From an uncultured Candidatus Saccharibacteria bacterium (lineage in GTDB: Bacteria; Patescibacteriota; Minisyncoccia; 2-02-FULL-40-12; GWA2-44-9): DNA of 64,000 nt. The notes beneath the pieces are model-generated. The model was not told where the DNA came from, searched no databases, and worked only from the letters and a program-made list of their open reading frames with translations. The stretch spans positions 28,947-92,946 of the forward strand of contig CAZBFM010000002.1 in NCBI GenBank assembly GCA_964491455.1, in the 5' to 3' direction. The position numbers and the translations under genes were made by a program. Positions 45-43,874 of the stretch are shown piece after piece. How positions within the stretch are numbered: position 1 is the first letter of the stretch; each line of letters opens with the position of its first letter.

Positions 45-85
45 AAAAAAGCCCGGCCATCCACGGTGTATGTGAATGCCGGGCC
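45..85 (-). terminator. Rho-independent terminator downstream of the vWA gene: stem gcccggc/gccgggc with a large loop, then a T-run on the minus strand.
   Basis: Inverted repeat at about 51-57 and 78-84, followed on the minus strand by TTTTTT (the plus-strand A-run 45-50). Confidence 0.5.
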
Positions 86-107: not shown

Positions 108-1151
108 TCAGCGACGCGCGCGACCATGTGCGCCCGTACTGGACGTCGTGATCTCGCCAGACGCCTGCGCGACCAGCGCAGCACCGACAGCCGGAACGAG
201 CGCCGCCGTTGCCTTGGAGGCAGCGTGCACACCTTTTGCTCCCTTGGCACGCAGCACGTCGACAAGATCGTCATGCTCCACACCAGAGAATCGGCCGATC
301 GCCATCGCCATCGTGCTCACGAGGGCGTCGGTCTCGGCCACCTCGAGCACATGCTCCGGATTCTCACCCGCATCCTGCAACAACTTCTGCCACATCTTGG
401 TGATGCGGACATCGGTGCCGTGATGCGTGTGCTTCGGCCGGAGCACGAAGACGTTGAACTTCTTACACGTCTCACGGACCGATTCCAACATCGTGACTTC
501 CGCTTCGATGCGATCACCGAACACAGAGTGCGCGATAGCAGGTGAGGTGCCGTGCTTGCTGGGATCGCCAGCATCGTAGTAGGGCTGCTCGTCGCAGATG
601 ACGAAGGCAAACCCCTTGGTGCCATCACGCTCAAACGATTCGAGCTTCGTATGACGTGCCAGCGCATAGAAGGTGAGGTGATACGCCTCTCCGTCGTTGC
701 CGCCACCCCTCATCGGGATGACCATCTCATTGAGTGCCTCCACCAACTTCGGAGCGCCGATCTCGAACTGGGACATCTGGAACGCCGCGTTAGGAACGAC
801 CGTCTCGTCGTCATGTCCAATGAACATGACGTTGGGGTGATCAGTGATCCCCTGTTCGACGAGGAGCCCGATAAGCGCGGGAAGCGCCTTCTGAATCTTC
901 TCCGGGACATCCTCCATACTTGCCGTACAATCGATCGACACCACAATCGGGGTGACCTGATCGAAGCCGGGTGCGAAACACGACTCTCGTACGCCGTTTT
1001 TTAGACCCTTGGGATCAAGAATCTTTGCGATGGAACCGGCAAAGTCACCGGTTGCCGCCGCTCGTGTGGAACGCGCGAACGCCTTGCCTGAATCGTCCAA
1101 CGCCTTAACGGCGCTGGCGTGATCCACGGGATCATGAGATCCACTGCCCAT
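108..1151 (-). CDS. von Willebrand factor A (vWA) domain protein, TerY-like.
   Basis: MIDAS-like DxTxS motif (VVSIDCTASM) in a roughly 200-aa vWA-fold region. It lies 50 bp downstream of the kinase homolog and is co-oriented with it. Confidence 0.6.
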   Translation of the reverse strand: MGSGSHDPVDHASAVKALDDSGKAFARSTRAAATGDFAGSIAKILDPKGLKNGVRESCFAPGFDQVTPIVVSIDCTASMEDVPEKIQKALPALIGLLVEQGITDHPNVMFIGHDDETVVPNAAFQMSQFEIGAPKLVEALNEMVIPMRGGGNDGEAYHLTFYALARHTKLESFERDGTKGFAFVICDEQPYYDAGDPSKHGTSPAIAHSVFGDRIEAEVTMLESVRETCKKFNVFVLRPKHTHHGTDVRITKMWQKLLQDAGENPEHVLEVAETDALVSTMAMAIGRFSGVEHDDLVDVLRAKGAKGVHAASKATAALVPAVGAALVAQASGEITTSSTGAHGRARR

Positions 1152-1204
1152 AGTGTTAGCCTTTCGTGGTACGACAGTTATACGACGTTATTGAACGAAC
1201 GACA

Positions 1205-2407
1205 CTAGTGCACCGAAGACGGCATGTCTAGTGGTGCAAATTGACGAACCGGGAAGACGCGCTTTGCGACCTCGGTAAATTCTCCCCATGCGGTGCTGCC
1301 ATCACGAGGACGCCGCGACGCAGTGGGTTGCAAACACCGATTGATGAACTCACGAAATGGAGCCTCGACCGTATCGGGGAGATGCTGCGTAGCAGGATCG
1401 CCTCCCAGAAGATACACCATACACCACGCCGACATGAAAATATCAGACGCCGGTGTTGGTGGGGCAGCGGTGCATGCCACCTCCAGAGGATAGTACGCTT
1501 GGTAGCGACTCTCCATATACGGGACAACATCAGCTTGACCCAACCGACACGACGCAGTCCAATCAATGATGTTTGCTTGGTGATCTCTCGCATGCACCAG
1601 CACGTGATTGGGCGTGAGGCCACCATGGATCACTTTCGCGCTGTGCGCCAGCGTGAGACCTTCGAGGATTCGATTCCAAATAAAGGTCATGATGCGCGTC
1701 GACACGCCGTTGGGATACGCAGATCGAATCGCTTCGAGCGTATACCAGCCGTCGGTTCGTACCGGATCCTGCAGTAGCACGTTCACCACGCGGCGATGTG
1801 TACTGCCAGGCTCTGCGAGTCTGATCGACTCGAGAAAATGCGGAAGACGACCTGCGAGACTGACAGCAACACGCTTACGATCAGGTACGTTCGAAAGCTC
1901 TTTGACCTTACTAGCGATCAAGCCATAGGAGCGAGCTTCTCGCTCCATAAGATCATTGTCAGCGCTCGAGTGAGGAATGCGCATCACCACGCTCGTGGCA
2001 ACGCCTTGCTTATCAATCGCAACACCGGTAAAGATGCCGCAGGTGCCGCCCTCGGAGATTCGAGTTAAGACCTGATACGAGTATCGCGCTGTGCGAAAAA
2101 CGAGTGGCCCACGCGTCGGCGCTTTCTTCGGCGTTGCGGACGTGCCATACGAGCCAGCTTTCAGTGCAGCCTGCGCTCGTCCCCAGAGCTCAGTGAGCCC
2201 CTGGAACGCCTTGCGCGCCTGCGCTTTTTCGCCGACGTCGAGGTACTTGTCCTCATGAACAACGCGCGCGAGGCGCCAGTAGATTTTCCGTGCTGCATCC
2301 AGTTGTGCATCGGGGGCGCCCGACAGGACACCAAAGATGTGCTCCGGAGTCAATGCTCGTGCAATCTGCTCAGCAACGATGGATAGCTCGTTACTAGACA
2401 CTTCCAA
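1205..2407 (-). CDS. Ser/Thr protein kinase-like protein, predicted pseudokinase or atypical kinase.
   Basis: Kinase-fold signatures are present: a Gly-rich loop (EGGTCGIFTGV) and a C-lobe. The catalytic loop reads HGGLTPNH where HRDLKPxN is expected, so the HRD Asp and the Lys are missing. DFG is replaced by DWT, and the beta3 position reads VVMRI rather than VAIK. Confidence 0.55.
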   Translation of the reverse strand: MEVSSNELSIVAEQIARALTPEHIFGVLSGAPDAQLDAARKIYWRLARVVHEDKYLDVGEKAQARKAFQGLTELWGRAQAALKAGSYGTSATPKKAPTRGPLVFRTARYSYQVLTRISEGGTCGIFTGVAIDKQGVATSVVMRIPHSSADNDLMEREARSYGLIASKVKELSNVPDRKRVAVSLAGRLPHFLESIRLAEPGSTHRRVVNVLLQDPVRTDGWYTLEAIRSAYPNGVSTRIMTFIWNRILEGLTLAHSAKVIHGGLTPNHVLVHARDHQANIIDWTASCRLGQADVVPYMESRYQAYYPLEVACTAAPPTPASDIFMSAWCMVYLLGGDPATQHLPDTVEAPFREFINRCLQPTASRRPRDGSTAWGEFTEVAKRVFPVRQFAPLDMPSSVH

Positions 2408-2551
2408 CCTCCTTTCTTATCAATGTTCGAAGGCACTATAGTAATACAAAGGTGGTGCAATGTCAACTACGCGATGCTTGACTTTTGAGCATTTTAGCTG
2501 TAGAGTACTGCGTCGTTCTCTGACAATCTAGTTACAACCAAGGAGGGCTCT

Positions 2552-5752: not shown

Positions 5753-7084
5753 ATGGCAACCGACTACCCCATCGCAGGCATGCACTGTCACTCCTGCGAG
5801 ATACTCGTCGAACAACACATCCAAAAAGTCCCCGGCGTGCAATCAGTGGACGTACATCACCACACAGGAATTGCTCGCGTGACACCGCAATCGGGACAGA
5901 CGCCAAATGAAGACGCCATCAAGCAAGCGATTCGTGACGCAGGATACACCCCCTCACAAGAACAACCACGACCGTGGATTGTCCGCGACAGCAACCAATG
6001 GATTGAAGCGATGGTCGCGGCGTGCTTGGTATTTGTGCTGTACATTGCCGCACGCCTTCTGGGAATCACATCGCTGTCAGCATCGATCGGCTCATCGGTG
6101 GGCATCGGGGTTGCACTTGTTGTCGGCCTTACTGCGGGCGTTTCCACCTGTGCCGCACTCGTCGGTGGCCTTGTGCTAGGATTTTCCGCACGCCACGCGG
6201 ATACACATCCACACGACACACTCTTGCAACGCCTTCGTCCTCACGCGTTTTTTCACCTTGGTCGCATCGTGGGATTTGCGCTCTTAGGTGGTGTGATTGG
6301 TTTTGCTGGATCAGCACTGCAGCCATCTGCGCTTCTCTTGGGAGTCCTTACGATGATTGTGGGTGTGGTGATGATTTCCTTAGGTATCAAACTCACCGAG
6401 CTAGTACCACGTGTTGATACACTTCTTACACTTCCACCGAGCATCGCGCGAACATTGGGCATCACCGCCGAGCATGCCTACAGTCACTGGCGAGCAATGC
6501 TCACCGGCGCGCTCACCTTTTTTGTGCCGTGCGGATTTACACAAGCGATTCAATTAGCTGCAGTCTCATCTGCGAGTGCTGCGCAAGGAGCGCTCATGAT
6601 GGGCGCATTTGCAGTGGGAACTACTCCGGGGCTTCTTGGTATCGCTGCCCTGTCATCACTGGTTCGAGGACCCTTTGCACGTTTTCTCTTTAAAGTGATT
6701 GGCGTTCTGGTTATCGGGCTAGGCGTCTGGAATATGAGTAATGGACTAACCTTGAGTGGCATTGCACTCCCTTCGCTGTCCGAAAAAGTCCAGGGCCCCC
6801 TGGCGGAGCTTCGCGGAGGCACGCAATACATAACCATGAAGCAAGGAGAGATTGGATACTCACCGAATACATTCACTATTCGAAAAGGCGTTCCCTTCGT
6901 ATGGACAATCACCTCCACGAGCTCATACACCTGCGCATCAACGTTGAGTGTGCCATCGCTGGGCATTCAAAAAAATCTTTCACTCGGAGATAATGTGATC
7001 ACCTTTACGCCATCGCGCAGTGGCACGATTCGATTTAGTTGCTCCATGGGTATGTTTGGGGGCGAAATAACCGTCATCGATTAG
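5753..7084 (+). CDS. Heavy-metal-associated (HMA) domain fused to a multi-pass permease and a C-terminal small beta-rich (cupredoxin-like?) domain.
   Basis: N-terminal GMHCHSCE (MxCxxC HMA motif), then at least 6 predicted TM helices including a conserved FFVPCGF segment, then a roughly 100-aa soluble C-terminal domain. It is immediately upstream of, and adjacent to, copA. The start at 5753 (ATG) was chosen because the longer ORF overlaps pth. Confidence 0.6.
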
Positions 7085-7085
7085 C

Positions 7086-9356
7086 ATGGCTAAAAAAACA
7101 ATCTCCATCCGCGGTATGCACTGCGCGTCATGCGTCCTGCTCATCGAACAAACACTCAAGAGCGTACCCGGCATCACGGAAGCAAATGCGAATCTTGCAA
7201 CGAACACCGCAACAATCACCTTCGACCCCCAGAACGTCACCGATCACGATATAGCGGAAGCCGTCAATAAAACGGGCTATGAAGTAGCCACCGAACAGCA
7301 CGAGGGCATGTCCGCTAGCGAACATTCTGCTCACCTCAAGCGCGAGAGCGCGCAAGAACTCATATCACTTCGACGAAAGGTCATTATATCGCTTGTATTC
7401 GGCGTACTCATCATATGGGGAAGCGTTCCTTGGCTTACCGCAACGGCTCCCTCGCTCCTTACGCAACCGTGGCTACAACTCCTCCTGGCGACTCCCGTCC
7501 AGCTTTGGATTGGCTTGGTCTTCTATCGACCCGCATTACGCGCTGCTCGTCATGGCACCTCAAACATGGACACGCTCGTTGCCATTGGAACAAGTGTCGC
7601 GTTTGCATACTCCACAGTCATCACAGTCGCCCCAACACTTGTGACGCGCATGGGCATCATTGCGATGCCATACTTTGATGTCAGCGTGATCGTCATTGGC
7701 CTCGTACTTCTGGGTCGCTATCTGGAAGCACGCGCAAAATCAGGAACCTCAGAAGCCATCGAAAAACTCATGGGACTGCAGGCAAAAACGGCGCGGGTCA
7801 TTCGCGACGGACAAGAGATTGATATTGCCATCGAACAGGTGATTGTTGGCGACACGATTCGCGTGCGACCGGGAGAGAAGATTCCCGTGGATGGTGTGAT
7901 TACCGAGGGCAGCTCTGCGCTCGATGAATCAATGGTGACGGGTGAAAGCATTCCCGCGAATAAGAGCGTCGGCGATACCGTTATCGGTGCAACGCTGAAC
8001 GTGCAGGGGTCCTTCCTCTTTACCGCTACAAAGATAGGCTCCGAAACGATGCTTGCGAGTATTATCAAACTCGTCCAAGACGCACAGGGGAGCAAAGCGC
8101 CCATTCAACGCTTGGCTGATCGCGTCTCATCGTACTTCGTTCCCGTGGTATTGGTACTCGCCGTTCTGACATTTGTAGTCTGGTATTTCGTCGGCCCATC
8201 CCCCACGCTCCCCTACGCGCTCCTAAACATGGTTGCCGTGCTCGTCATCGCCTGCCCCTGTGCTATGGGACTGGCAACACCCACAGCTATCATGGTCGGA
8301 ACCGGTGCTGGTGCGCAACGTGGAATCTTGATAAAAAATGCAGCAGCACTCGAAGTCGCTCACTCAATCACCGCAGTGCTGTTTGATAAAACAGGAACAC
8401 TCACCGAAGGCAAGCCGCGGGTCACTGGTGTTATCACCGTAGATGGATACACCGAATCAGACATCCTTCGTTTGGACGGAGCACTCGAGCAATCCTCAAG
8501 CCACCCGGTCGCGAAGGCCATCACCGATGAGGCGCGTCACCGAGGAGTCTCCCTCCAGGGATCACCGCAACAGTTTGAGGCCGTCGCCGGATTTGGCATT
8601 CAGGGACTCGTTGAGGGTCAGCAGCTCGTGTCGGGCACTGAACGTTTCATGCAGATGAAAAAGATTGATGTAACTCTTCTGCGCGCACAGATTGATACGC
8701 TCATGGACGGTGGCAACACGCTCACCATCGTTGCTGCCGATGGCATTGTCATCGGAGCCATTGCGATTGCCGATACCATCAAGCCAACTGCGCGACAGAC
8801 GATAGACACGCTCAAAAAAATGGGAGTATCAGTTGCCATGATAACGGGTGATCACGAACGCGTAGCATCATCGGTCGCACACGCACTCGGCATTGATCGC
8901 TACTTTGCGTCTGTGCTCCCCAGCGACAAAGCAAGCTACGTCACTAAACTCCAACGCGAAGGCAACAAGGTTGCCATGGTTGGCGATGGCATCAACGATG
9001 CGCCAGCGCTTGCTGCCTCAGACGTGGGCATCGCCATCGCAACGGGCACTGATGTCGCCATCGAAGCGGCGGGTATCACCCTCGTCAACAAAAACCTCAT
9101 CGCAATTGCAACGACGCTCGCTCTTTCGCGAGCCACCATGCGCACCATCAAACAGAACCTCTTTTGGGCATTTGGGTACAACATCATCCTTATTCCGATT
9201 GCCATGGGAGCTCTCTATCCGTTCACCGGCACGCTCATGAATCCAATGCTTGCATCAGCGGCGATGGCGCTTAGTTCAATTTCCGTGGTGCTCAATTCTC
9301 TAATCCTAAAGAGAAAGGATATACAGCCAAGCGGCACGCCGCGGCTCCGTATGTAA
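7086..9356 (+). CDS. copA: Copper-translocating P1B-type ATPase.
   Basis: N-terminal HMA GMHCASC; the CPC transmembrane metal site ([12 protein letters not shown]); DKTGTLT phosphorylation motif; GDGINDAP hinge; 756 aa. Confidence 0.92.
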
Positions 9357-16137: not shown

Positions 16138-17718
16138 ATGGCAACACCAACAATCCTCAAACTCACGGGACAGACACTCACCACACACGACGTACAGGCG
16201 GTCGTTACCCACCCTCGCCTGCAGGTGCGCGTTGCACCCGCCGCTCTCATTGGAATGCGCAAATCCAAAAAACTTCTCGATGCCACTCTCACCGAGCGCA
16301 TTATCTATGGCGTCAATACAGGTTTTGGTCCAATGGCCTCTCATATTATTGGTCGCGATGACCTCCTACAACTCCAGCTCAATCTTGTGCGCAGCCACTC
16401 CAGTGGCATCGGAGCTCCGATTGATTCCAACCTCGTACTTGCGGCAATGGTCATTCGCCTCAACACACTCTCAAAGGGATTTTCGGGCGCGTCCGATGCC
16501 GTCGCCCATCAACTCGAAAAGTTTATCAACGCCCGCATCACTCCTATCATCCCAGAGCACGGCGCTGTTGGAACAAGTGGCGACCTCGTGCAACTCGCAC
16601 ACATTGCACTTGCCCTCATTGGAGAAGGTGAGGTGCACTACCGCGGCGAACGCATGCCGACCGCAACTGCGCTCGCAAAAGAGAAAATTGCACCACTTAC
16701 GCTCGGACCAAAAGAGGGGCTAGCACTGATCAATGGCACCGCTGGAATGACGGCTGTTGCTGCAATCCTCTGTGAAGCGGCGGCACGCATTGTTGCGCTC
16801 AGCCTCCGCACCGGTGCGTGGTCGCTTGATATCGTGGGTGGATTCGACGACAGTATTAGCGAGCGCATTCATGCGGTACGCCCACACGCCGGCCAACGAG
16901 TCGCCGCTGCTGCCCTTCGAGGTCTCGTCGCCAAAAGTGGCCGCATGAAAAATCGCGAAGCATTCAACAAGAAGCACGCTATTTCCGATGAGGTCCACAA
17001 AATCGCCGAAGATGTTCAGGAGATGTACTCCCTTCGATGCATACCGCAGATTGTTGGGCCCGTGCTTGATGCGTTCTGGAGAGTCCGTAGCGACGTCACC
17101 ACGGAAATGAATTCTGCCACTGACAATCCGATTGTGGACTGGGAGCGTGGCGTCTTTCTCCATGGAGGCAACTTTCATGGTGAATACATCGCCGCTGCAG
17201 TCGACTACCTCAAGACTGGCATGATCAAGCTCACTATGCTCAGCGAGCGGCGCATCAATTACTTCATGAATCCTGCAATCAATCATCGATTGCCTCCATT
17301 TGTGAATCTGCACACTCCTGGACTTACCCTCGCGCTCCAAGGCATGCAATTTGTCGCCACCTCCACAGCAGCACATAGTCAATCGTTGGCATTCCCCCAT
17401 CATATTCACTCCATTCCAACAAATGGGGATAACCAAGATGTTGTGAGCATGGGATTTGATGCAGCCCTCATCGCCACCAAGGCAATTGAAAATGCATATG
17501 CCGTCCTTGCTATTGAGATGGTGACACTCGCTCAAGCCACCGATGCTCTGAAGTGCTCTCGCGAACTATCGCCCGAAAATCAGCAACTCTATCGGGCAAT
17601 TCGCAAGCTCACTCCCCCCGTGATCGAAGATCGCCCACTTGCACCTGATCTTGAGCGCATCGTCGCGTTTCTCAAGTCATCACCAACACTGCCCATCGAC
17701 TCACTCAGGAAGCAATGA
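16138..17718 (+). CDS. Aromatic amino-acid ammonia-lyase/aminomutase family (HAL/PAL/TAL, MIO-dependent) homolog.
   Basis: Family-typical GTSGDLVQLAHIAL with Thr-Ser-Gly at the MIO-forming triad (canonical Ala-Ser-Gly), plus NTGFG and the conserved C-terminal fold. 526 aa. Confidence 0.8.
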   Translation: MATPTILKLTGQTLTTHDVQAVVTHPRLQVRVAPAALIGMRKSKKLLDATLTERIIYGVNTGFGPMASHIIGRDDLLQLQLNLVRSHSSGIGAPIDSNLVLAAMVIRLNTLSKGFSGASDAVAHQLEKFINARITPIIPEHGAVGTSGDLVQLAHIALALIGEGEVHYRGERMPTATALAKEKIAPLTLGPKEGLALINGTAGMTAVAAILCEAAARIVALSLRTGAWSLDIVGGFDDSISERIHAVRPHAGQRVAAAALRGLVAKSGRMKNREAFNKKHAISDEVHKIAEDVQEMYSLRCIPQIVGPVLDAFWRVRSDVTTEMNSATDNPIVDWERGVFLHGGNFHGEYIAAAVDYLKTGMIKLTMLSERRINYFMNPAINHRLPPFVNLHTPGLTLALQGMQFVATSTAAHSQSLAFPHHIHSIPTNGDNQDVVSMGFDAALIATKAIENAYAVLAIEMVTLAQATDALKCSRELSPENQQLYRAIRKLTPPVIEDRPLAPDLERIVAFLKSSPTLPIDSLRKQ

Positions 17719-19199
17719 CACCGCGCGACTTGCAAACGTTTTTTGATGCTCACGCACAACGCAATTGGGTGAAGCATTACTTCTCGTTTGACGTTGCGAC
17801 ATTCGAGCGCCTCCTCCACCACCGCGACGAAACCTTTTGGAATACTCTTGGCGCTCGTAGGGCTCTCAAGTTATTTCACGACGCAGCTGTGCGCGTACCC
17901 GCATATAAGGACTTCCTTCGCACCAATCGCATTCGCCATGCAACAGTAAAAACAATCGCAGACTTTGCGCGCGTGCCCCGCACCACCAAGGAGAATTACA
18001 TCAACCGCTATGCACTCAGCGATCGTTGCTGGGATGGCATACTCTCCGCTACCAGCATCATCGCGATGAGCTCCGGGACGAGTGGCGAGCCAAAATTCTG
18101 GCCCCGAGGTGGCTTCTCTGAATTCGAAGCGGCGATCATTCACGAGCTCACGTATCGTTCACTTTTTTCAATTCACAAAAAGAGAACGCTTCTCGTTATT
18201 GGGTTCCCCATGGGTGTGTATGTATCGGGCATCGCCACACTTCTGCCGAGCTGGATGGTAGCGCAGCGAGACTACGACTTGACGATTGTGGCCGCCGGCA
18301 ACAATAAAGTCGACATGCAACGCATCACGCAACACCTCCGAACTGCATTCGATCAAGTCGTTCTTATTGGCCACCCATTCTTCATTAAAGATGTACTCGA
18401 AACGGGCGCAGCGGAAGGTGTTGATTGGAGCACAATCACCACGTCACTTCTGTTCTGTAGTGAAGGATTTAATGAACAGTGGAGGGATCACGTTGCATCT
18501 GTCGCTGGTAGTACGCCCGACTCGGTTCGCATATTCAACACGTATGGCTCGTCGGAGACACTACTCATTGGTCACGAAACACCAGTAAGTATTGCCCTCC
18601 GTAAAACCATGAACGACACATTAACGCCGAACATATTCCAGTACAATCCATTCTTGCGATACCTCGATGTCACCGATGGCATTCTCAACTTTACTCTCAA
18701 CAGCGGAGTGCCCCTCATTAAGTACGACCTCGCCGATGGCGGGACCATCCTTCCTTTTTCAGAGGCAACACAACATCTTTCACCATCGCTTCGTCGGTCT
18801 GCGTGGAAGCTTCCGTTTGTTACGCTCGATGGTCGGCGTGACAATACAATTATCTTCTATGCGGCCAATATCTATCCAGAACACATTCATGCCGCACTCA
18901 ATGACAAGAAATTTTTGCGCTCCATAACGGGCAAATTTGCGATGCGAAAAGAGTACCTGAAAAATAAGGATGAATTCCTAGAAATACACGTAGAGCTTCG
19001 CCCTCGCCAAAAAGTCACCGCAGCACTCGCCACTGCAATTGCCAAGCACGCCACCTCGCGACTATTAGATATCAATATGGAGTACAAATTTCTTTGGTCG
19101 AACCTCGACAAAGACATCCGCCCGCGCGTCATTTTGCACCCCTACCAATGCGAGCCCTATTTCCGCGCCGGACTAAAACCTCGCTATATCATCAAATGA
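17715..19199 (+). CDS. PaaK-like adenylate-forming enzyme (phenylacetate-CoA ligase / F390 synthetase family).
   Basis: SSGTSGEPKFWPR P-loop-like AMP-binding motif, about 490 aa. Its ATGA start overlaps the lyase stop, indicating translational coupling. Confidence 0.65.
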   Translation: MTPRDLQTFFDAHAQRNWVKHYFSFDVATFERLLHHRDETFWNTLGARRALKLFHDAAVRVPAYKDFLRTNRIRHATVKTIADFARVPRTTKENYINRYALSDRCWDGILSATSIIAMSSGTSGEPKFWPRGGFSEFEAAIIHELTYRSLFSIHKKRTLLVIGFPMGVYVSGIATLLPSWMVAQRDYDLTIVAAGNNKVDMQRITQHLRTAFDQVVLIGHPFFIKDVLETGAAEGVDWSTITTSLLFCSEGFNEQWRDHVASVAGSTPDSVRIFNTYGSSETLLIGHETPVSIALRKTMNDTLTPNIFQYNPFLRYLDVTDGILNFTLNSGVPLIKYDLADGGTILPFSEATQHLSPSLRRSAWKLPFVTLDGRRDNTIIFYAANIYPEHIHAALNDKKFLRSITGKFAMRKEYLKNKDEFLEIHVELRPRQKVTAALATAIAKHATSRLLDINMEYKFLWSNLDKDIRPRVILHPYQCEPYFRAGLKPRYIIK

Positions 19200-20341
19200 C
19201 CCCCGTCGACCACCCAACGCTCTTTACGCCACGCATGCCAGCGCATCAATCTGCACTGAGGAAACTGCGCTCCGATGTATCGGTGCGCGTCATTGATACC
19301 TACGAGCACCAACTCGCTGAACTGTACGTGATCCAAAACCCTGCTGTCATTGGGCTGCCACCAGCAGAGCTTGCAACTCGTATAGCGACATACGTAGCTC
19401 GTACTGCGCGACGAGCCACGCTTGAGCAGCAAGGAACCTGGGCCTGGCTTCCCTGGCAGCGAACACTCGTGCATATTCTTCCTGAACGAGAATTCTTTCT
19501 CGTTCGAACCAATCGCAATGGAAATCTCATCACACCACAAGAACAACAACGGTTCTATCGGTGCGTCGTCGGCGTAGCGGGACTATCCGTTGGCGGTAGC
19601 ATTGCCCTCACCCTCGCACTCCAGGGTGGCGCTCGAACTATTCGAATTGCGGACTTCGATTCACTTGAGCTCTCCAACACCAACCGCATACTAGCGGGAG
19701 TACATGAACTCGCCACGCCAAAAACAACCATTGTAGCTCGTCGCATTTGGGAGATGAATCCGTATGCACGCATCACCATCTTTCAAGATGGCCTCACTGA
19801 AAAGAACATACCGTCATTCATGCGAGGCCTTGATGTTATCGTCGACGAGATGGACCAAATGGCAATCAAACAGCTCATTCGCGAACAAGCACGTGCCAAT
19901 AAAGTCGCGCTCGTATCGACTGCCGATAATGGAGATACGAGCGTCGTGGACGTGGAACGCCACGACCTCAAGCAGACTCCGTACTTCCTGGGTCGACTTG
20001 GAGCGACGTCCGTTAAGCAATTCCACTCGATGAATAAACTTCAAATCATCCGCGAAATCACACGTCTCATGGGCCCTGAAAATGTTCCTCCTCGCATGCA
20101 ATCGTCTCTTTCAGAAATCGGCAACACCCTCGTGTCAGTCCCTCAGCTCGGTGGCACCGCACTCATGGGCGCAGCGGCAACCGCATACTGCGTACATCGC
20201 ATCGCCGCTGGCCTTCCGCTCCCATCTGGTCGCTCCATTATTTCTCTCGATGAGAAGCTCGAGCCCGGGCACCAAGCAAGCGCTGCAAAAAATCGTCGCG
20301 CAAAAAATACTCGCATCTTTGCAAAGAACCTCGGCCTGTAG
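19196..20341 (+). CDS. E1-like (ThiF/MoeB family) adenylyltransferase with an N-terminal extension of about 120 aa.
   Basis: Rossmann motif VVGVAGLSVGGSIALTLALQGG...IRIADFDSLELSNTNRI, which is the E1 signature. ATGA overlap with the upstream ligase. Confidence 0.7.
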   Translation: MTPVDHPTLFTPRMPAHQSALRKLRSDVSVRVIDTYEHQLAELYVIQNPAVIGLPPAELATRIATYVARTARRATLEQQGTWAWLPWQRTLVHILPEREFFLVRTNRNGNLITPQEQQRFYRCVVGVAGLSVGGSIALTLALQGGARTIRIADFDSLELSNTNRILAGVHELATPKTTIVARRIWEMNPYARITIFQDGLTEKNIPSFMRGLDVIVDEMDQMAIKQLIREQARANKVALVSTADNGDTSVVDVERHDLKQTPYFLGRLGATSVKQFHSMNKLQIIREITRLMGPENVPPRMQSSLSEIGNTLVSVPQLGGTALMGAAATAYCVHRIAAGLPLPSGRSIISLDEKLEPGHQASAAKNRRAKNTRIFAKNLGL

Positions 20342-20409
20342 CACGTATCCGCAGATGCCATACTACCGTTTTTTTTGGCACGATTTCGCGGTATACTAAA
20401 AATCATCAC

Positions 20410-21444
20410 ATGCGTACCGCCATCGAACACATTCTCGCAGCGGCCGTACTCGCTCCCTCCGGAGACAATTGCCAACCGTGGCGTTTTGAAGTTGCACGCG
20501 ACACCATTGATGTGCACCTCGTGAGTGAGCGAGACACATCGCTCTATGGCGTCGGTCACTTTGCATCCTACATCGCACACGGAGCGCTCTTAGAGAATAT
20601 CGCCATAGCGGCGCGCGCGCAGGGAGTTCAGGCAACTATTTCGGAATTCCCTACGCCACACAATCAGCTCCACACCGCACGAATAACACTCTCGTCGATA
20701 CCCACGCGCCATGATCCTCTAGCCAGTGCGATTGCCGAGCGTTGCTCGAATCGAAAACCATACCTCTCCACACCCTTAACACCGCACCAACGAGATGTGC
20801 TTCGTGAAGCGGGAGGAAACGACACGATCTTCATCGAAGACGAATTAACTCGAAAACTTCTTGCATCCTCGCTGGCGGCAAATGAGAAGGTGCTCTTCGA
20901 AAATAGAGCGATGCATACGTTCTTCTTCGATCACATGCTCTGGACTGCACATGCGGCAGCAGCGAATCCCATTGGATTTCATCCAGCGTCACTCGAGCTC
21001 CCCGCACCAATTTATGGCATATGGCCAGCGTTTCGACATTGGCCAATCATGGCCACCTTAACGTCTCTTGGATTTGCGAATGCAATCGCTTTCGGGAACG
21101 CCCCGATCTATGCTTCAGGAGCAGCTCTCGCCTGTATTACAATCGTCGAGCGATCTGCGCGCGACTATCTTCACAGTGGCCGCACACTCCAACGCCTCTG
21201 GCTAACCGCCACTAACCTTGGGTTGAGTGCACAAATCCTCACAGGCATCCCGCTCCTTATGAATGCAGTTCATGCACGCACACCATGCCTTTCACCAAAG
21301 CATGCGCGCTTCATCGAACGGCACTACGCTCATCTACAACACCTTGTTGGAGCTCCACATGCAGAGATCGCTTTTTTTCTTCGAGTTGGTGTCAGCCCTA
21401 AGCCAAGCGCTCGCACGCCCCGTGCAGCACCCACCATCACATGA
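20410..21444 (+). CDS. Extended nitroreductase-family (FMN-dependent) protein.
   Basis: N-terminal PSGDNCQPWRF nitroreductase motif. Its 344-aa length suggests two nitroreductase-like lobes. The stop overlaps the histidine kinase start (ATGA). Confidence 0.6.
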   Translation: MRTAIEHILAAAVLAPSGDNCQPWRFEVARDTIDVHLVSERDTSLYGVGHFASYIAHGALLENIAIAARAQGVQATISEFPTPHNQLHTARITLSSIPTRHDPLASAIAERCSNRKPYLSTPLTPHQRDVLREAGGNDTIFIEDELTRKLLASSLAANEKVLFENRAMHTFFFDHMLWTAHAAAANPIGFHPASLELPAPIYGIWPAFRHWPIMATLTSLGFANAIAFGNAPIYASGAALACITIVERSARDYLHSGRTLQRLWLTATNLGLSAQILTGIPLLMNAVHARTPCLSPKHARFIERHYAHLQHLVGAPHAEIAFFLRVGVSPKPSARTPRAAPTIT

Positions 21445-23137: not shown

Positions 23138-23533
23138 ATGGACAACGCAAAACCCCTCATTCTCGTTACCGATGATGACGCGAGCATTCGGAATATTCTC
23201 CACATAAAACTGGAAGCCGCTGGCTTTCGAGTATCCGAAGCAACGAATGGACAGGAAGCGATCGATTTTTGCAAAAAGGAAAAGCCGGCACTTATCGTTA
23301 TGGACGTGGGGATGCCGGTCATGTCAGGCACAGAGACAGTAACTGCAATAAAGAAAGACGATGCGATAAAGGATATTCAAATTATATTCTTAAGCAATTT
23401 CGGAGAGGAAAACGAGCTCAATGCGTGGCTTGATCAGAAGTTCGCAAAAGAACTCGGCGCTGTAGATTACATGAAAAAGTCGGAGGATATATCCAGGATC
23501 ATCGAGAAGATAACGTCTCTCGTTCATGTCTAG
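23138..23533 (+). CDS. Stand-alone response-regulator receiver (CheY-like).
   Basis: ILVTDDDASIRN...LIVMDVGMPVMSG...KK carries the receiver Asp/Lys signature. 131 aa. Confidence 0.8.
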   Translation: MDNAKPLILVTDDDASIRNILHIKLEAAGFRVSEATNGQEAIDFCKKEKPALIVMDVGMPVMSGTETVTAIKKDDAIKDIQIIFLSNFGEENELNAWLDQKFAKELGAVDYMKKSEDISRIIEKITSLVHV

Positions 23534-25256
23534 CGATGGCGCAAAAACTGTTCTTATCATCGAAGATAACTTCTTTATGGCGCAACTATTGCGCGAGAAG
23601 CTGGAACACCAAGGCTTTGCGGCAATCCATGCTCAAAATGGGAACATCGGCGTCGATGAAGCGCTCAAGAAAACCCCAGCGCTAATACTCGTCGATATCC
23701 CCCTCTCCGGCGACATGGACGGCTTTGCAACACTTACTGCACTCCGAGGCATCCAGTCCCTCGAACACGTACCCGTCCTCACGCTATTCACCACAAAGGA
23801 TCAAGGCGATATCGAAAAGCTGGAAAAAATAGGCTTTGCGGAGTACCTCGTAAAAGCAGATGCAAACGCCGATGCCATCGTTCTGAAAGTCGTCGAGCTC
23901 ATCACCGGAGTTTTACAAAAATCGACCAAGATCATCGCGCCGGGCGAAAAAGAACTGAAGACGGTGCCACCGAAGGTACGCGCAGTGATAGCAGAATCAG
24001 GCAACGAAGGATCACAGTATGTCGCGCGCGCCGCAACTATCAAGGCGGAAGTAGCAACCATGTTGAAACTTCCCGAAGCGGAAATATCCATCATCACACT
24101 TGTCGATGACATGATGATATTTGCATTTCTAGCCAGAGCGTCAGACGTTCACCTTGAGCCGTTTGAAGAGACTCTCGTTGCTCGTATGCGTATCGATGGG
24201 ATCCTGAGCGACGAATTCACATTCCCTAAGGCGCTCCACGCCGGCATCATTTCGCGCATCAAAGTATTAGGCGGCATGCGCACCGATGAACACCAAGCCG
24301 CTCAAGATGGACGCTTCCAGATGACAATCCCAGATATTCAAAAGCAATTCGATGTTCGCGTCAGTATTATCCCGACATATTACGGTGAAAATGGAGTCTT
24401 GCGTTTACTCGCAGAACAAACATCTATCAGCTCACTTGATAATTTAGCCTTTACTGATTTCGATCGTGCTCGCATCCGCAAGGCCGTCAAAACACCCTAC
24501 GGCATGATCCTCGCTACAGGACCTACGGGATCCGGAAAAACCACCACGCTCTACACCATTCTACGAGAGCTCAACACGCGAGCAGTCTCCGTCATCACCA
24601 TCGAAGATCCGATTGAGTACTCACTCGAGGGCGTCGATCAAATACAGGTCAACACCCGTACGGGCCTCACCTTTGCCACCGGTCTTCGATCTATCCTTCG
24701 ACAAGACCCCAACATCATTATGGTTGGAGAGATTCGCGATGAAGAAACCGCATCGATCGCAATCAATGCCGCGCTCACGGGACACAAGCTCTTAAGCACC
24801 ATCCACACGAACGACGCGGCAACAACACTTCCCCGCTTGCTTGATATGGGCATCGAGCCATTTCTTGTGGCGTCAACGGTCAATGTTGCCGTCGGACAGC
24901 GTTTAGTTCGCATGATATGCAATGAGTGCAAGGTACCCCGACGGATCACAGAGGGCGAGTTTAATGCTCTCAAAGAAAACATTCCGGAATCGATTCTCGG
25001 AGATCATCACGATTACTTTCAGGGCAAGGGCTGCGATGCGTGTGGGCAAACGGGCTATCGCGGACGTATGGGTATCTATGAGATACTAGAGATGAGCGAC
25101 TTCATTCGTGAGGCGCTGATGAGGCGCGCGGACGCTGGAGAAATTAAAAAGATTGCAGTCAAAAATGGCATGACCACGCTCCTAGAAGATGGATTCAAAA
25201 AAGCAGTGGAAGGTCGCACCACCATCGAAGAACTACTTCGCGTTATTCATGAATAA
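23526..25256 (+). CDS. pilB: Type IV pilus/T2SS assembly ATPase (PilB/GspE family) with an N-terminal receiver domain.
   Basis: An N-terminal REC fold (KTVLIIEDNFF...LILVDIPLSGDMDG) precedes a GspE core. The core carries Walker A GPTGSGKTTT, the Asp box and His box (GEIRDEETA...TIHTNDA), and a tetracysteine motif CNEC...CDACG. Confidence 0.85.
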   Translation: MSSDGAKTVLIIEDNFFMAQLLREKLEHQGFAAIHAQNGNIGVDEALKKTPALILVDIPLSGDMDGFATLTALRGIQSLEHVPVLTLFTTKDQGDIEKLEKIGFAEYLVKADANADAIVLKVVELITGVLQKSTKIIAPGEKELKTVPPKVRAVIAESGNEGSQYVARAATIKAEVATMLKLPEAEISIITLVDDMMIFAFLARASDVHLEPFEETLVARMRIDGILSDEFTFPKALHAGIISRIKVLGGMRTDEHQAAQDGRFQMTIPDIQKQFDVRVSIIPTYYGENGVLRLLAEQTSISSLDNLAFTDFDRARIRKAVKTPYGMILATGPTGSGKTTTLYTILRELNTRAVSVITIEDPIEYSLEGVDQIQVNTRTGLTFATGLRSILRQDPNIIMVGEIRDEETASIAINAALTGHKLLSTIHTNDAATTLPRLLDMGIEPFLVASTVNVAVGQRLVRMICNECKVPRRITEGEFNALKENIPESILGDHHDYFQGKGCDACGQTGYRGRMGIYEILEMSDFIREALMRRADAGEIKKIAVKNGMTTLLEDGFKKAVEGRTTIEELLRVIHE

Positions 25257-25279
25257 ACCATAACTACAAGCGGAGGGAT

Positions 25280-26356
25280 ATGAAATGGTTTGACTCACTC
25301 AGCTCATTGGGATTTCGCTTGTCACTCAAAGACAAGATGCTGTTTGCGCGTCACATGGAAATGATGACCCGCTCGGGCATGCAAATACTCGACGCCCTCG
25401 AGATTCTCAAGAAGCAAACCAAATCCAAACCATTTATCTCAATGGTCGACCATCTCATCGAAGATGTTCGCAATGGCCAGAACTTATCTGTTGGGATGCA
25501 GCGCTATAAGAATGTGTTCGGTGAATTCTTCATCAATCTTATTCGCGTTGGAGAATCATCAGGAACACTTTCGGAAAATTTTGCCTACCTCGCCACCGAG
25601 CTGGGCAAGAAATCTGAGCTTCAGAAAAAAATTCGTGGGGCAATGGCGTATCCTCTCGTCATTCTCTTTGCCACGTTTGGCATATCGGGAATTCTTTCGT
25701 TCGTCATATTCCCAAAAATTCTTCCCGTTCTTCGAAGCCTCAACACAACACTCCCTCTCTCTACTCGTATTTTCATTTCCATATCGGAATTTATGATTTC
25801 CAATGGACTCCTTCTCTTCGGAGTTGTTATTGGCGGCATCGTGCTTGGGACCCTCCTGTTACGCATCGGTGCGATCCGGCTCTTCTGGCATCGTATTATC
25901 CTCGCAACACCTTTTGTGAATCGCATGTCAATCGACATTAATATTATCAGCATATCTCGCACACTCAATCTCCTCCTCCGCGGAGGCGTCAAAATAGTCC
26001 AGGCACTAGAAATCACCTCCGACACACTAACGAATCTCGTATATCAGACTGAACTACGGATCATTGCGCAAGCAGTGCAACGAGGAGAACCCATGAGTAA
26101 ATCGATGATCCTCAATGAGCGACTCTTCCCTCCTACGTTTAGTCAGATGGCCGCAGTTGGTGAAAACACGGGAAAGCTCGATGAGACGCTCGTGTTCTTA
26201 GCGGACTTCTATGAAAGCGAAATGGATAATTCGACAAAGAGCATGAGCAACGTATTAGAGCCGGCGATGTTGCTGGCAATGGGAGGCATTGTCATGTTCG
26301 TCGCCATCTCGATCATCACACCCATTTATTCGGTCACGCAAACACTTGGTCGCTAA
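25280..26356 (+). CDS. pilC: Type IV pilus inner-membrane platform protein (PilC/GspF family).
   Basis: Two GspF-type repeats, 3 TM segments, and a position immediately after pilB. Confidence 0.8.
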   Translation: MKWFDSLSSLGFRLSLKDKMLFARHMEMMTRSGMQILDALEILKKQTKSKPFISMVDHLIEDVRNGQNLSVGMQRYKNVFGEFFINLIRVGESSGTLSENFAYLATELGKKSELQKKIRGAMAYPLVILFATFGISGILSFVIFPKILPVLRSLNTTLPLSTRIFISISEFMISNGLLLFGVVIGGIVLGTLLLRIGAIRLFWHRIILATPFVNRMSIDINIISISRTLNLLLRGGVKIVQALEITSDTLTNLVYQTELRIIAQAVQRGEPMSKSMILNERLFPPTFSQMAAVGENTGKLDETLVFLADFYESEMDNSTKSMSNVLEPAMLLAMGGIVMFVAISIITPIYSVTQTLGR

Positions 26357-26357
26357 T

Positions 26358-28115
26358 ATGAAACAACGAACGGGACAACGGGGGTTCACCGTCCTTGAGA
26401 CGTTAATCGGAATCGCGATTCTTTCTATCGTGAGCACCGCTGTGTATTTTTCGTATTCCAATATCCTCGATATCGTTCAGGCGGCGCAGTACAACAACGC
26501 GGCGCTAAGCATCATGGAATCAAACGTCGAATCAGTTCGAAATATGCGCTACGAAGATATCGGCGTCATTGGCGGAGCTCCCGCGGGTCTCATCCCCCAG
26601 GTAACATCCGTGACGCTCGGTACAACGACCTACACGCTCCACACGTATGTTCGCAATATTGACGATTCCTTCGACGGAACTCTGGGTGGAACGCCCAACG
26701 ATACCGCCCCAGCTGATTATAAGCTCGTTGAATTCCAAGTTACCTGCGATAGTTGCACTCGCTATCGCGAGCTCACCATGGCAACCTATGTAGCCCCAAA
26801 GAATCTCGAGAGTGCCAGCAAAAATGGCAACCTCTTTGTTCGCGTGCTCGATGCGTCGGGTATTCCCCTGAGTGGCGTGACTGTCCGGGTTACGAATAAC
26901 AAGGTGACACCCGCTATCGATCTCACGGATACGACGAATACGAATGGCATCCTGCAACTCGTCGGGATAGCTACGAGCTCTTCAGGGTATCACCTAGTTG
27001 CGTCAAAAACCGGCTACAGCACCGATCAGACTTATCCCATAGGCGCACCTGCGAATCCGGTAAAGCCGGACGCCACGGTCGCGAATCAACAGCTTACCAT
27101 CTCAACTCTTGCCATCGATGCACTTGGGTCACTACGCATTCAAGCCCGCACAGCATATTGTCAAAACGTGCCCTCTTTTGATTTTCTTATTACCGGAGCA
27201 CAGCTCATTGGCACGAAACCGGACGTGCCTAAATATTCCGTACCGCTCACCACAGACACCAATGGGTCGTACGTGAACCAAAGCCTCGAATGGGATTTCT
27301 ATTCGATTCGCGCAACCGATGCTTCCTATGATCTCGCTGCCACCGTCTCATCGCTCTCGTTCTCACTAGCACCGAGTGAGTCAAAAACTCTCTCGTGGAT
27401 GCTCGCTGATAAATCAAGCAATAGCACAACGCTATCAGTCGTCGATCAATCAGGGACTCCAATCTCGGGTGCAACGGTGCGAGTCACAGGCACCTCCTAT
27501 GATCAATCACGCACCACGAGCTACTATCCGTTCACACAAACAACCTGGGCAAGCAATGAGTTCACCAGCAAAAGCACACTCATGAGCACGGCAACGCCCG
27601 GATTGCTCACGCTGGGTATGATTGCTGGATCGTACGCGAGCGCTAGCAATGAGTGGCTCATTTCGAACACGATAGATCTTGGCACCTCCAGCACATCACT
27701 CGGGGTTCTACGCTGGTCTCCCATAGTTCAACCTCCGACCGTAGGCACAGGTGCGTTGCAGATACAAATCGCAGGCAACTCTGATAACGCGACATGGAAT
27801 TGGGTCGGCCCTGATGGAACACCTGGAACATTTTTCTCGACACCTGGGCAACTCATTCCTGAAAGTCTTCGTGGGTCCCGCTACCTCCGCTACCGCGTCG
27901 TCATGGACACTGCTGACGTCAATCAATCACCTCAACTCGATGATATATCGCTGGAATTTTCTTCTGACTGCGTTCCCCTTGGGCAAGTCTACTTTAATGG
28001 CCTCGCCCTTGGCAGCTACACCGTGACCATTTCTCATCCGAATTATCAGGCGTTTACCGGGACCCTCGTCATCTCAAGCGACTGGAGCCGGTCTACATTC
28101 ACACTCTTACCATGA
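26358..28115 (+). CDS. Large prepilin-like protein (about 585 aa; pseudopilin or putative tip adhesin).
   Basis: Class III signal peptide KQRTGQRGFTVLETLIGIAIL (G/FTxxE cleavage-methylation motif), followed by Ig-like/carboxypeptidase-regulatory-like beta domains. The start was moved to the ATG at 26358, just after the pilC stop. Confidence 0.7.
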   Translation: MKQRTGQRGFTVLETLIGIAILSIVSTAVYFSYSNILDIVQAAQYNNAALSIMESNVESVRNMRYEDIGVIGGAPAGLIPQVTSVTLGTTTYTLHTYVRNIDDSFDGTLGGTPNDTAPADYKLVEFQVTCDSCTRYRELTMATYVAPKNLESASKNGNLFVRVLDASGIPLSGVTVRVTNNKVTPAIDLTDTTNTNGILQLVGIATSSSGYHLVASKTGYSTDQTYPIGAPANPVKPDATVANQQLTISTLAIDALGSLRIQARTAYCQNVPSFDFLITGAQLIGTKPDVPKYSVPLTTDTNGSYVNQSLEWDFYSIRATDASYDLAATVSSLSFSLAPSESKTLSWMLADKSSNSTTLSVVDQSGTPISGATVRVTGTSYDQSRTTSYYPFTQTTWASNEFTSKSTLMSTATPGLLTLGMIAGSYASASNEWLISNTIDLGTSSTSLGVLRWSPIVQPPTVGTGALQIQIAGNSDNATWNWVGPDGTPGTFFSTPGQLIPESLRGSRYLRYRVVMDTADVNQSPQLDDISLEFSSDCVPLGQVYFNGLALGSYTVTISHPNYQAFTGTLVISSDWSRSTFTLLP

Positions 28116-28708
28116 GGCTTTACGGATTCACCCTTATAGAAATACTCGTGGCAATGACGATCACGTCTATGACCCTTGTTTTTGTAACGTATTTCTCACT
28201 CAATATTTCGAGCTTTGGAACTGACCTAAATTCTCGACTAGAATCAGAATACGAGCTTCAGCTGGCCCTTCGCACCATGTCATCGGAAATTAGATCTATG
28301 GGACCGGGTAGTAATGGCGCTTACCCCATAGCCACAGCAACGGCAACGACGTTTATGTTTTATAGCGACATCGATGGAGATGGTTCATTCGAGCAAGTGC
28401 GCTACTTCCTCGAGGGAACGGTTCTTAAAAAAGGAGTGACTCGAGCAACAGCAACGGAGCCGATCCTGTATCCGTCAGCAAACGAAACAGTCATTGAAAT
28501 CGCGCACTACCTTACCTCGACATCTCTCTTTTCCTTCTTCGCTGAAGGCCATCCTGACATTATTGCCCCGCTCGCAACGCCCGTGACACTCTCTCAAATT
28601 CGCCTCGTGCGTATTACCGGCACTGTTGATCGCGACACCATGCAGCCGCCACTCCCAAGCACGCTCTCAACGTCTATCACCATTCGAAATTTAAGAGGCG
28701 AAATATGA
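28112..28708 (+). CDS. Minor pilin (prepilin-type N-terminal domain).
   Basis: MRLYGFTLIEILVAMTITS prepilin motif. Confidence 0.7.
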   Translation: MRLYGFTLIEILVAMTITSMTLVFVTYFSLNISSFGTDLNSRLESEYELQLALRTMSSEIRSMGPGSNGAYPIATATATTFMFYSDIDGDGSFEQVRYFLEGTVLKKGVTRATATEPILYPSANETVIEIAHYLTSTSLFSFFAEGHPDIIAPLATPVTLSQIRLVRITGTVDRDTMQPPLPSTLSTSITIRNLRGEI

Positions 28709-30147: not shown

Positions 30148-30268
30148 AATATGTGGACATCTCGAAGAGCGTTTGCTGATATACTGTACGCATAAGGTCG
30201 ATAGCTGGGACGCTCCATGCATGGCGCCTCAGTGATATGTATTCAAGTGTAATAAATTATTTTTATCT

Positions 30269-30718: not shown

Positions 30719-30744
30719 CACTCGTTCGAGTAGGAGGAATACAT

Positions 30745-30775
30745 CACAACGCCCGAAAGGGCGTTGTGTGTTTGT
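30745..30775 (+). terminator. Rho-independent terminator after the major pilin gene.
   Basis: acaacgccc-gaaa-gggcgttgt stem-loop followed by GTGTTTGTG. Confidence 0.65.
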
Positions 30776-30789
30776 GATATACTTGGCAT

Positions 30790-32935: not shown

Positions 32936-32957
32936 GGCGTGTACAAACTATCTGCTG

Positions 32958-33030
32958 TGGACCCTAGCAGGTTCGAACTGCTGACCTCCTCATTGCAAAT
33001 GAGGCGCTCTACCAGCTGAGCTAAGGGCCC
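32958..33030 (-). tRNA. tRNA-Ala (anticodon UGC).
   Basis: Reverse complement GGGCCCTTAGCTCAGCTGGTAGAGCGCCTCATTTGCAATGAGGAGGTCAGCAGTTCGAACCTGCTAGGGTCCA. It has the G3:U70 Ala identity pair, anticodon loop TT-TGC-AA, a T-loop GTTCGAA, and no encoded CCA. Confidence 0.9.
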
Positions 33031-33041
33031 GTATACCGCGG

Positions 33042-42375: not shown

Positions 42376-43874
<1,499 letters not shown>

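Follow-up and report, generated by a model that had tools for sequence, protein, structure and literature searches.

A J-domain pseudokinase, a vWA-fold protein and a PurA-like enzyme encoded together in Saccharibacteria, other bacteria and large phages

A 64-kb stretch of a contig from an uncultured Candidatus Saccharibacteria bacterium (GenBank assembly GCA_964491455.1, contig CAZBFM010000002.1, positions 28,947 to 92,946; hereafter the window) begins with two genes that an earlier note, made from the sequence, had taken for a TerY-P-like dyad. One encodes a protein, here called JK, in which a J-like domain precedes a pseudokinase domain, and the other encodes a vWA-fold protein, here called vWA-B. 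Comparison with other genomes indicates that the two are very probably the first members of a conserved cassette whose third gene encodes a PurA-like enzyme. The closest described systems each resemble this cassette in part. The TerY-P triad, which Anantharaman, Iyer and Aravind are said to have described in 2012, reportedly consists of a TerY vWA protein, a PP2C phosphatase and a Ser/Thr kinase. It shares with the cassette a vWA protein that bears a metal-ion-dependent adhesion site (MIDAS) and is encoded beside a kinase-fold protein, whereas the cassette has no PP2C or Ter genes, its kinase fold carries a J domain and lacks the catalytic Asp throughout the family, and its third gene is the PurA-like one. 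In eukaryotes, cyclin-G-associated kinase (GAK) and auxilin combine a kinase domain with a J domain, and the GAK kinase is active; JK is similar in joining, on a single polypeptide, a kinase fold to a J domain of the kind that brings Hsp70 to the protein assembly it has bound, but its domain order is reversed and its origin and clients are unrelated.

The enzyme activases CbbQ-CbbO, NorQ-NorD and CoxD-CoxE belong with the MoxR-vWA systems. MoxR-vWA systems of this chaperone/co-chaperone kind are ternary: an effector works together with a MoxR ATPase and a vWA protein that binds peptides (Kaur et al. 2020, PMC7159879). The cassette may be analogous, in that a vWA adaptor, a supplier or recruiter of a chaperone ATPase and a client enzyme would be encoded side by side, with the J-domain pseudokinase in place of the MoxR AAA+ ATPase. 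It would differ in having a J domain, degenerate in this locus, as its chaperone link (to Hsp70), a PurA paralogue as its client, and a first gene that is elsewhere swapped for small proteins without a chaperone signature. No MoxR-type AAA+ gene was found among the conserved neighbour clusters or the genes of the contig, a survey that did not include an explicit AAA+ profile scan of all loci. Likeness to the PurA and PurZ enzymes lies in the PurA fold, the GD-x-GKG P-loop and residues Asp13, His41 and Gln224 of the PurA-like protein, which departs from PurA at the aspartate-site residues R303, R305 and T301 and at T129 and N38, which contact the phosphate of inosine monophosphate (IMP). NrtR-regulated operons for salvage of nicotinamide adenine dinucleotide (NAD; nadV, pncA, pncB, nadE) are also comparable, as such genes share an operon with the cassette in roughly one in three loci, viral contigs included. 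NARP1 and NARP2 are phage pathways of NAD reconstitution; to our knowledge, no known pathway of NAD salvage or reconstitution includes a vWA protein, a J-domain pseudokinase or a PurA-family enzyme.

Gene order and distribution of the cassette

The surroundings of vWA-B were scanned with our own profiles in 174 loci, which reduced to 155 when identical copies were collapsed, and features were counted up to 6 kb from vWA-B. A PurA-like gene lies near vWA-B in 148 of the 155 loci; this check of neighbourhood conservation, which the earlier note had suggested, replaces its two-gene dyad with a cassette of three, the PurA-like gene having been overlooked. The first gene is variable: it is JK in 65 loci, a gene here called c4 in 46 (among them L039, L054 and L076), and a gene here called c7, encoding ~135 aa, in 16. 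The c4 protein (~200 aa; for example, L076 5154-5792) has no Pfam, NCBIfam or PHROG match and ends in a strongly acidic C-terminal tail that could be a MIDAS ligand. JK, c4 and c7 are mutually unrelated; hidden kinship of c4 and c7 with JK was considered and rejected, the hhalign probabilities being 0.1-0.2%.

The loci come from bacteria of the candidate phyla radiation (CPR), Actinobacteria, Clostridia, Bacteroidales and large phages, Bxz1-like mycobacteriophages among them. The order JK, vWA-B (~330-348 aa), PurA-like recurs in other CPR contigs, an unclassified metagenome-assembled genome (MAG), Nocardiopsis and Bifidobacteriaceae; median gaps are estimated at ~22 nt from JK to vWA-B and ~35 nt from vWA-B to the PurA-like gene, and stop and start codons overlap in the Nocardiopsis cassette. 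Mycobacteriophage Catera encodes the cassette as gp249 ('kinase'), gp250 and gp252, and a gut phage and a KVP40-like Vibrio phage encode vWA-B and the PurA-like protein without JK. Three loci (L057, L064 and L067) have two tandem vWA-B paralogues between JK and the PurA-like gene. Among phages more broadly, vWA-B is present in 219 GenBank records, 200 of them from Mycobacterium phages, and relatives occur on at least 456 IMG/VR contigs, many of which are 100-400 kb long. A phage-type integrase gene (7025-7906) situated directly upstream of JK, on the opposite strand, in a Saccharibacteria-type contig (L002) hints that the cassette can be mobile. We found no published description of the cassette in the literature, in which phage genome papers merely name the genes. 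The cassette is widespread, built from known domain families and apparently undescribed; what is new about it, beside the vWA-chaperone ternary systems that it resembles in logic, is its enzyme and its NAD context.

The genes and signals of the present locus are given below, where L001 denotes the same contig extended past the window (16 kb), such that window position equals 9356 minus L001 position.

2438-2466, minus strand: promoter-like TTGACA-17-TACTAT (10/12 matches), upstream of the JK gene
1205-2407, minus strand: JK gene (J-like domain and pseudokinase), 400 aa if read from TTG 2407
108-1151, minus strand: vWA-B gene (vWA-fold protein), 347 aa, with stop codon TGA at 108-110
45-85, minus strand: terminator-like hairpin and T6 directly 3' of the vWA-B stop codon, from sequence and RNA fold
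11-39 (L001 9317-9345), minus strand: promoter-like TTGACA-17-TACAAT (11/12 matches), serving the PurA-like gene
L001 9365-10714: PurA-like gene, Adenylsucc_synt family, 449 aa, its ATG 10 nt past window position 1

JK and vWA-B are co-oriented on the minus strand with 53 nt between them, in agreement with the spacing of about 50 bp originally described. The public gene call starts JK at GTG 2401 (398 aa), with GGAGG 7 nt upstream, and this is likely the true start. A terminator had also been placed after the pair, and a hairpin is indeed present at 85-50 (14 bp, one bulge and a 7-nt loop, with a T-tract after it), which a simple terminator scan did not detect because the loop and bulge are beyond its limits. 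The terminator is not the clean end that had been supposed, as the near-consensus promoter of the PurA-like gene follows it at once, both elements lying inside the window.

The three proteins

Within JK and vWA-B, the following domains and motifs are recognised.

2144-2395, minus strand: J-like domain of JK, ~residues 5-88, with H51-E52-D53 at 2249-2257
1208-2110, minus strand: pseudokinase domain of JK with the predicted fold of eukaryotic protein kinases (ePK), ~residues 100-400, from hhalign to PknB and from Foldseek
1604-1627 and 1556-1564, minus strand: catalytic loop HGGLTPNH and DWT of JK, respectively
918-932, minus strand: predicted MIDAS D74-x-T76-G-S78 of vWA-B, completed by T168 and D187

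The Pfam Pkinase model scores 28.2 bits on JK (cutoff 31.7) and covers the C-lobe only. A search of 5.8 billion proteins yielded 48 relatives of ~390 aa, mostly unnamed and metagenomic, some of them labelled Candidatus Paceibacterota and one, from Nocardiopsis, named 'J domain-containing protein'. The substitutions first read from the sequence (HRD to HGG, Lys to Thr, DFG to DWT) are borne out by the profile alignment that had been proposed as a check: hhalign of a profile of 28 JK-family members to the PknB kinase domain (97% probability) places H261-G262-G263 on HRD, T265 on the catalytic-loop Lys, H268 on the catalytic-loop Asn, and D282-W283-T284 on DFG, the Asp of which is kept in JK. The same alignment identifies E309 as the APE Glu, D322 as the alphaF Asp and R366 as the subdomain XI Arg, all three as in a bilobal kinase fold. 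Because the N-lobe was left unaligned by hhalign, R143 was assigned to the beta3 Lys position, where an Arg had been read, by the strand map of the AlphaFold model and by eye only. The model has a predicted local distance difference test score (pLDDT) of 91, and its top Foldseek matches are GRK2, PIM1, AAK1, PknB and PknG; the predicted fold of the JK kinase domain is that of an ePK. An aminoglycoside-phosphotransferase fold was rejected, since Pfam APH matches at E=0.042 over 45 residues only and Foldseek leads to ePKs, and a re-registered catalytic loop that restores HRD is ruled out by hhalign.

If a pseudokinase is a kinase fold in which the beta3 Lys, the HRD Asp or the DFG Asp is missing, JK belongs among them, with Gly263 in place of the HRD Asp and R143 at beta3. 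The absence of the catalytic Asp, already remarked upon for this copy, extends to its relatives: an Asp occupies the HRD position in 2 of 90 non-identical JK-family members collected from genomes, viral contigs and a protein database, so that pseudokinase status is family-wide and not a product of local decay. In the same set, the DFG Asp is kept in ~50 members and lost in ~40, beta3 K/R is found in 58, and the alphaC Glu is lost in ~39. As judged from these residues, JK cannot act as a conventional kinase. PADLOC returned only partial kinase-domain matches for JK (MkoA, 47.7 bits over 150 of 1112 positions, together with PD-T4-6, mad6 and PglW), with no full-length match to any of its defence-system proteins.

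The J-like domain of JK had also been overlooked. Pfam DnaJ scores 12 bits on JK itself, and a precomputed Pfam DnaJ match exists for 8 of its relatives; the JK family profile aligns with the J domain of E. coli DnaJ (hhalign, 89.5% probability, E=2e-6), H51-E52-D53 falling on the HPD motif. The AlphaFold model has helices at residues 5-17, 22-25, 32-49 and 58-83, among which J-domain helices II and III are present, and the alignment and the model agree on the helical hairpin of a J domain. An intact HPD is required for stimulation of Hsp70 by J-domain proteins; it is found in 55 of the 90 JK relatives, and HED in 11, all of them in a CPR-type clade that includes this copy, and the J motif is lost altogether in a few family members. 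By its predicted motifs, the JK protein of this locus is degenerate in both the J and the kinase domain.

For vWA-B, no match was obtained in Pfam, NCBIfam or PADLOC at E<=1, or between its sequence and solved structures in the PDB at E<=10, and the vWA fold is recognised by structure comparison only. The AlphaFold model (pLDDT 87, predicted template modelling score 0.86) matches the SpaC vWFA domain, integrin alpha-I and beta-I domains and TFIIH p44 with a Foldseek probability of 1.0. Consistent with the MIDAS-bearing vWA partner that the earlier note recognised, an alignment of 40 relatives, some as little as 24% identical, shows no variation at D74, T76, S78, T168 and D187 or in the family motifs SQFE and GGGN-x-x-E; vWA-B is thus a protein of predicted vWA/integrin I-domain fold with a complete predicted MIDAS. 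A HMMER scan of 1.84 billion representatives found 1561 vWA-B clusters (50% identity) at E<=1e-10, nearly all of them single-domain proteins of 290-350 aa that match from the first residue. No domain fusion that might reveal a partner was seen among the best 150 representatives, which include one tandem duplicate only; the database representative P0273 (581 aa) has the look of such a fused duplicate. The N-terminus is unusually well conserved, 134 of 142 representatives having M-G-x-G-[ST]-[WYF]-S (window 1131-1151 in this locus); the C-terminal tail of this copy is basic (GRARR), and many members end in such a tail or in ...R-L. PHROGs labels JK 'kinase', vWA-B (phrog_2971) 'unknown function', and the PurA-like protein '2-aminooxy adenylosuccinate synthetase'.

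The PurA-like protein of this locus scores 142 bits against a purA cutoff of 395 bits, and PurA-like proteins of CPR bacteria and Nocardiopsis alike score 92-184 bits against purA equivalog cutoffs of ~395-402. Alignment of 79 members with E. coli PurA, the numbering of which is used here, indicates that the clade keeps the P-loop G12-D13-x-G15-K16-G17, His41, Gln224, Leu228 and Thr239, with D13 (79 of 79), K16, H41 and Q224 invariant. Nearly all members are changed at N38Q, T129C, V273H, T301Q (Gln in 77 of the 79) and K331H; R303 has no counterpart, and R305 is hydrophobic. By its score and by residues R303, R305 and T301, the protein falls outside purA. In the E. coli enzyme, Asp13 and His41 are known to drive formation of 6-phosphoryl-IMP, R303 and T301 to bind aspartate, and N38, T129 and R143 to bind the IMP phosphate. 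From the residue pattern set against that enzyme, we infer that the phosphoryl-transfer half-reaction is kept and the acceptor site rebuilt, so that the acceptor amine, and probably the nucleotide too, would be different. PurZ has Ser at the position of the catalytic Asp13 (PMC12884076), and identification of the PurA-like protein as PurZ or PurZ0 was rejected, as its Asp13 is kept. A tree of 767 sequences in the same study places 251 in PurA and 151 in PurZ, and the remainder, mostly phage, are undiscussed (PMC12884076).

NAD-salvage context, working model and alternatives

An NrtR-like gene adjoins the cassette in 51 of the 155 loci, with hosts among CPR bacteria, Actinobacteria, Clostridia, Bacteroidales and viral contigs; the proteins match Pfam NUDIX and NrtR_WHD, and score 118-126 bits, under the cutoff, with NCBIfam NtrR. 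At least one of NrtR-like, NadV and PncB is found in 55 loci, and PncB in 8. In rumen and gut Clostridia there is an operon of NrtR, PncA, NadE or a methyltransferase, PncB, c4, vWA-B and PurA-like genes, in which PncB was confirmed by Pfam, and PncA and NadE were recognised by visual inspection of the sequences. A NadV-type phosphoribosyltransferase that scores above the NCBIfam cutoff is encoded in or beside the cassette in 11 loci, 8 of them viral and one from Saccharibacteria; one example of gene order is NrtR-NadV-JK-vWA-PurA-like, and another, in L103, is vWA-NrtR-NadV-PurA-like-JK. Besides L103, genes of the NadV type and NrtR-like genes are interleaved with the cassette in L017, L088, L110, L117, L119, L124 and L168, and in some viral loci a HIRAN-like small protein is encoded directly before vWA-B.

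We propose tentatively, with rather less than even confidence, that vWA-B is a hub adaptor, JK a non-catalytic regulator that recruits Hsp70, and the PurA-like protein the working enzyme of a nucleotide metabolism linked to NAD/ADP-ribose. The position of hub is given to vWA-B because it is the constant companion of the enzyme on one side and of the changing first gene on the other. Through its MIDAS face it would grip a partner, for which the PurA-like enzyme and the first-gene protein are the likeliest candidates. JK would be a non-catalytic scaffold that binds vWA-B, and the phosphorylation-independent scaffold role already suggested for the pair is, in our judgement, the sensible reading; a JK protein with an intact HPD would bring Hsp70/DnaK to the complex, to remodel or switch it. 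The PurA-like enzyme may use a nucleoside triphosphate to drive the swap of an oxo group on a purine-like nucleotide for an amine other than aspartate, any particular chemistry being held with less confidence than the arrangement as a whole. In the lineage studied here, Hsp70 coupling and co-transcription may both be relaxed, given the HED motif and the promoter of the PurA-like gene behind the terminator. An extension of this proposal, possible but on balance unlikely, is that the cassette constitutes an unrecognised nucleotide pathway, in which the remodelled acceptor pocket of a PurA-family enzyme takes a non-aspartate amine, a purine- or NAD-related product is made or restored under an ADP-ribose-sensing regulator, and vWA-B with the Hsp70-recruiting pseudokinase serves as an on/off gate. 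The amine could be ammonia, could involve nicotinamide-related chemistry, or could even be the invariant N-terminal glycine of vWA-B.

Several observations weigh against the hub model. Four loci from gammaproteobacterial MAGs (L035, L038, L043 and L070) encode a pseudokinase and vWA-B with no adjacent PurA-like gene; the pseudokinase (~575 aa) is of HGA type and has a Cys-rich N-terminal region in place of the J domain, and vWA-B starts MGYGGY. (An exclusive tie between the MG-x-G-S-aromatic N-terminus of vWA-B and the PurA-like gene, as if the former were the amine substrate, was considered and is not supported, since these four loci keep the motif.) In the present locus, vWA-B and the PurA-like gene are separated by a terminator and a promoter, and JK reads HED where an intact His-Pro-Asp is expected; with 35 of the 90 relatives lacking HPD, recruitment of Hsp70 by this JK is doubtful. 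Nor can Hsp70 be essential to the core function, as the first gene is replaceable by c4 or c7, which have no J domain. The NAD context extends to about a third of loci only, and no NAD gene lies beside the cassette in the window or in the 16-kb contig, so that the NAD link holds for the family and not for this locus. The AlphaFold models cover JK and vWA-B as monomers.

The signalling dyad of the TerY-P type, in which a vWA sensor would act under a degenerate partner of the kinase family and the PP2C protein would simply be lacking, is highly improbable. The close spacing and common orientation of a MIDAS vWA gene and a kinase-fold gene favour it, as do the four gammaproteobacterial loci that keep pseudokinase and vWA-B alone, but vWA-B has no Pfam vWA match and its conserved partner is the PurA-like enzyme. 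The lack of PP2C remarked upon in the earlier note is borne out: no PP2C motif is present in the 64-kb window, no PP2C is encoded by the called genes of the 16-kb contig, and no phosphatase family appears among the conserved neighbours of the 155 loci; nor are there Ter genes near the pair among the called genes of the contig. Since the catalytic Asp is missing in 88 of the 90 relatives, phosphorylation would never have been part of the JK family. The TerY-P label fails, as the TerY-type vWA, the PP2C protein and the active kinase are all absent. Some kinase-fold proteins once termed pseudokinases have other chemistry (AMPylation by SelO, glutamylation by SidJ), and JK might similarly be an atypical active enzyme, for example a kinase or a nucleotidyl-transferase, that modifies vWA-B by a non-canonical mechanism built on the invariant His261, His268 and Asp282. 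Such an enzyme would be in keeping with the general retention of G120 of the Gly-rich loop, the beta3 K/R and Glu157, and with the residues that never vary among close family members (His261, Pro266, His268 and Trp283); however, the wider family has lost the DFG Asp in ~40, the beta3 K/R in ~30 and the alphaC Glu in ~39 of its 90 members, losses that fit a binding scaffold and not an enzyme, and we regard an active JK as improbable.

The prevalence of vWA-B in phages (the 219 GenBank records, 200 of them from Mycobacterium phages, and at least 456 IMG/VR contigs), the NrtR-like and NadV genes inside the cassette on viral contigs and the integrase beside it in L002 are also what one would expect of a phage-derived module for counter-defence or takeover of the NAD/nucleotide pool, domesticated by some bacteria. 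The PurA-like enzyme would then restore or make a nucleotide upon NAD degradation or adenine-nucleotide deamination by the host or by a defence system, and vWA-B and JK would tune it. This explanation overlaps with the hub model, differing in that the function is placed in phage-host conflict and not in housekeeping; the flanking genes of this locus, however, are housekeeping genes with nothing phage-like nearby, and PADLOC gave only weak kinase-domain matches, and we consider it a doubtful though serious candidate. Lastly, the neighbourhood might be coincidental, the PurA-like protein being an ordinary adenylosuccinate synthetase and JK and vWA-B an unrelated pair. The terminator and separate promoter that precede the PurA-like gene here would suit this explanation, and CPR proteins are often very divergent. 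It is scarcely credible in view of the adjacency of the genes in 148 of the 155 loci, across several phyla and phages, the loss of R303 and R305, the changes at T301, T129 and N38, and scores far under the purA cutoff even in Nocardiopsis.

Other features of the window and significance of the cassette

Elsewhere in the window, a full-length 16S rRNA gene (42375-43881, minus strand) and the genes for tRNA-Ile(GAT) and tRNA-Ala(TGC) (32957-33113, minus strand), normally spacer tRNAs between 16S and 23S, have ~9.3 kb of protein-coding genes between them. No 23S gene was detected in the 64-kb window, which indicates that the rRNA genes are unlinked. Co-oriented genes at 16138-21444 (plus strand) encode an aromatic amino-acid ammonia-lyase (519 bits), a 494-aa protein without a Pfam match, a ThiF-family E1-like protein and a nitroreductase-like protein, together perhaps a small cluster for modification or biosynthesis; genes for a histidine kinase and response regulators come next. 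A block at 23138-32418 (plus strand) is type IV pilus-like, as read by eye, with response regulators, a fusion of a receiver domain to a PilB/GspE-type ATPase, PilC and several prepilin-like proteins. At 49154-55489 (minus strand), three tandem paralogues of ~690-725 aa have near-identical signal peptides and repeated 'DDVRVYNRAL' modules, which by eye look like LamG/concanavalin-type repeats.

Should the PurA-like protein turn out to be a normal adenylosuccinate synthetase, what is left would be an odd regulatory pair. If instead the proposal made here is true, several hundred phage 'PurA-like' genes would constitute an enzyme clade of their own that acts on a different acceptor substrate, taking in those of ~200 Bxz1-type mycobacteriophages, in which the genes are annotated only as 'kinase', 'hypothetical' or 'PurA-like', as well as the phage homologues that fall outside PurA and PurZ in the recent phylogeny (PMC12884076). 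JK would then represent a bacterial and phage family in which a pseudokinase, inactive family-wide, is fused to a J domain and links Hsp70, instead of a MoxR ATPase, to a vWA adaptor. The recurrent placement of NrtR, NadV, PncB, PncA and NadE would connect the cassette, in a way that can be put to the test, with NAD/ADP-ribose metabolism, a core subject of present research on phage defence and counter-defence. Tractable models are available in Nocardiopsis, in KVP40-like Vibrio phages, and in M. smegmatis infected with phage Catera or Bxz1. Should the cassette be the unrecognised pathway considered above, both its enzymatic activity and the route that it adds to the NAD/ADP-ribose-linked conflict between phages and their hosts would be new.

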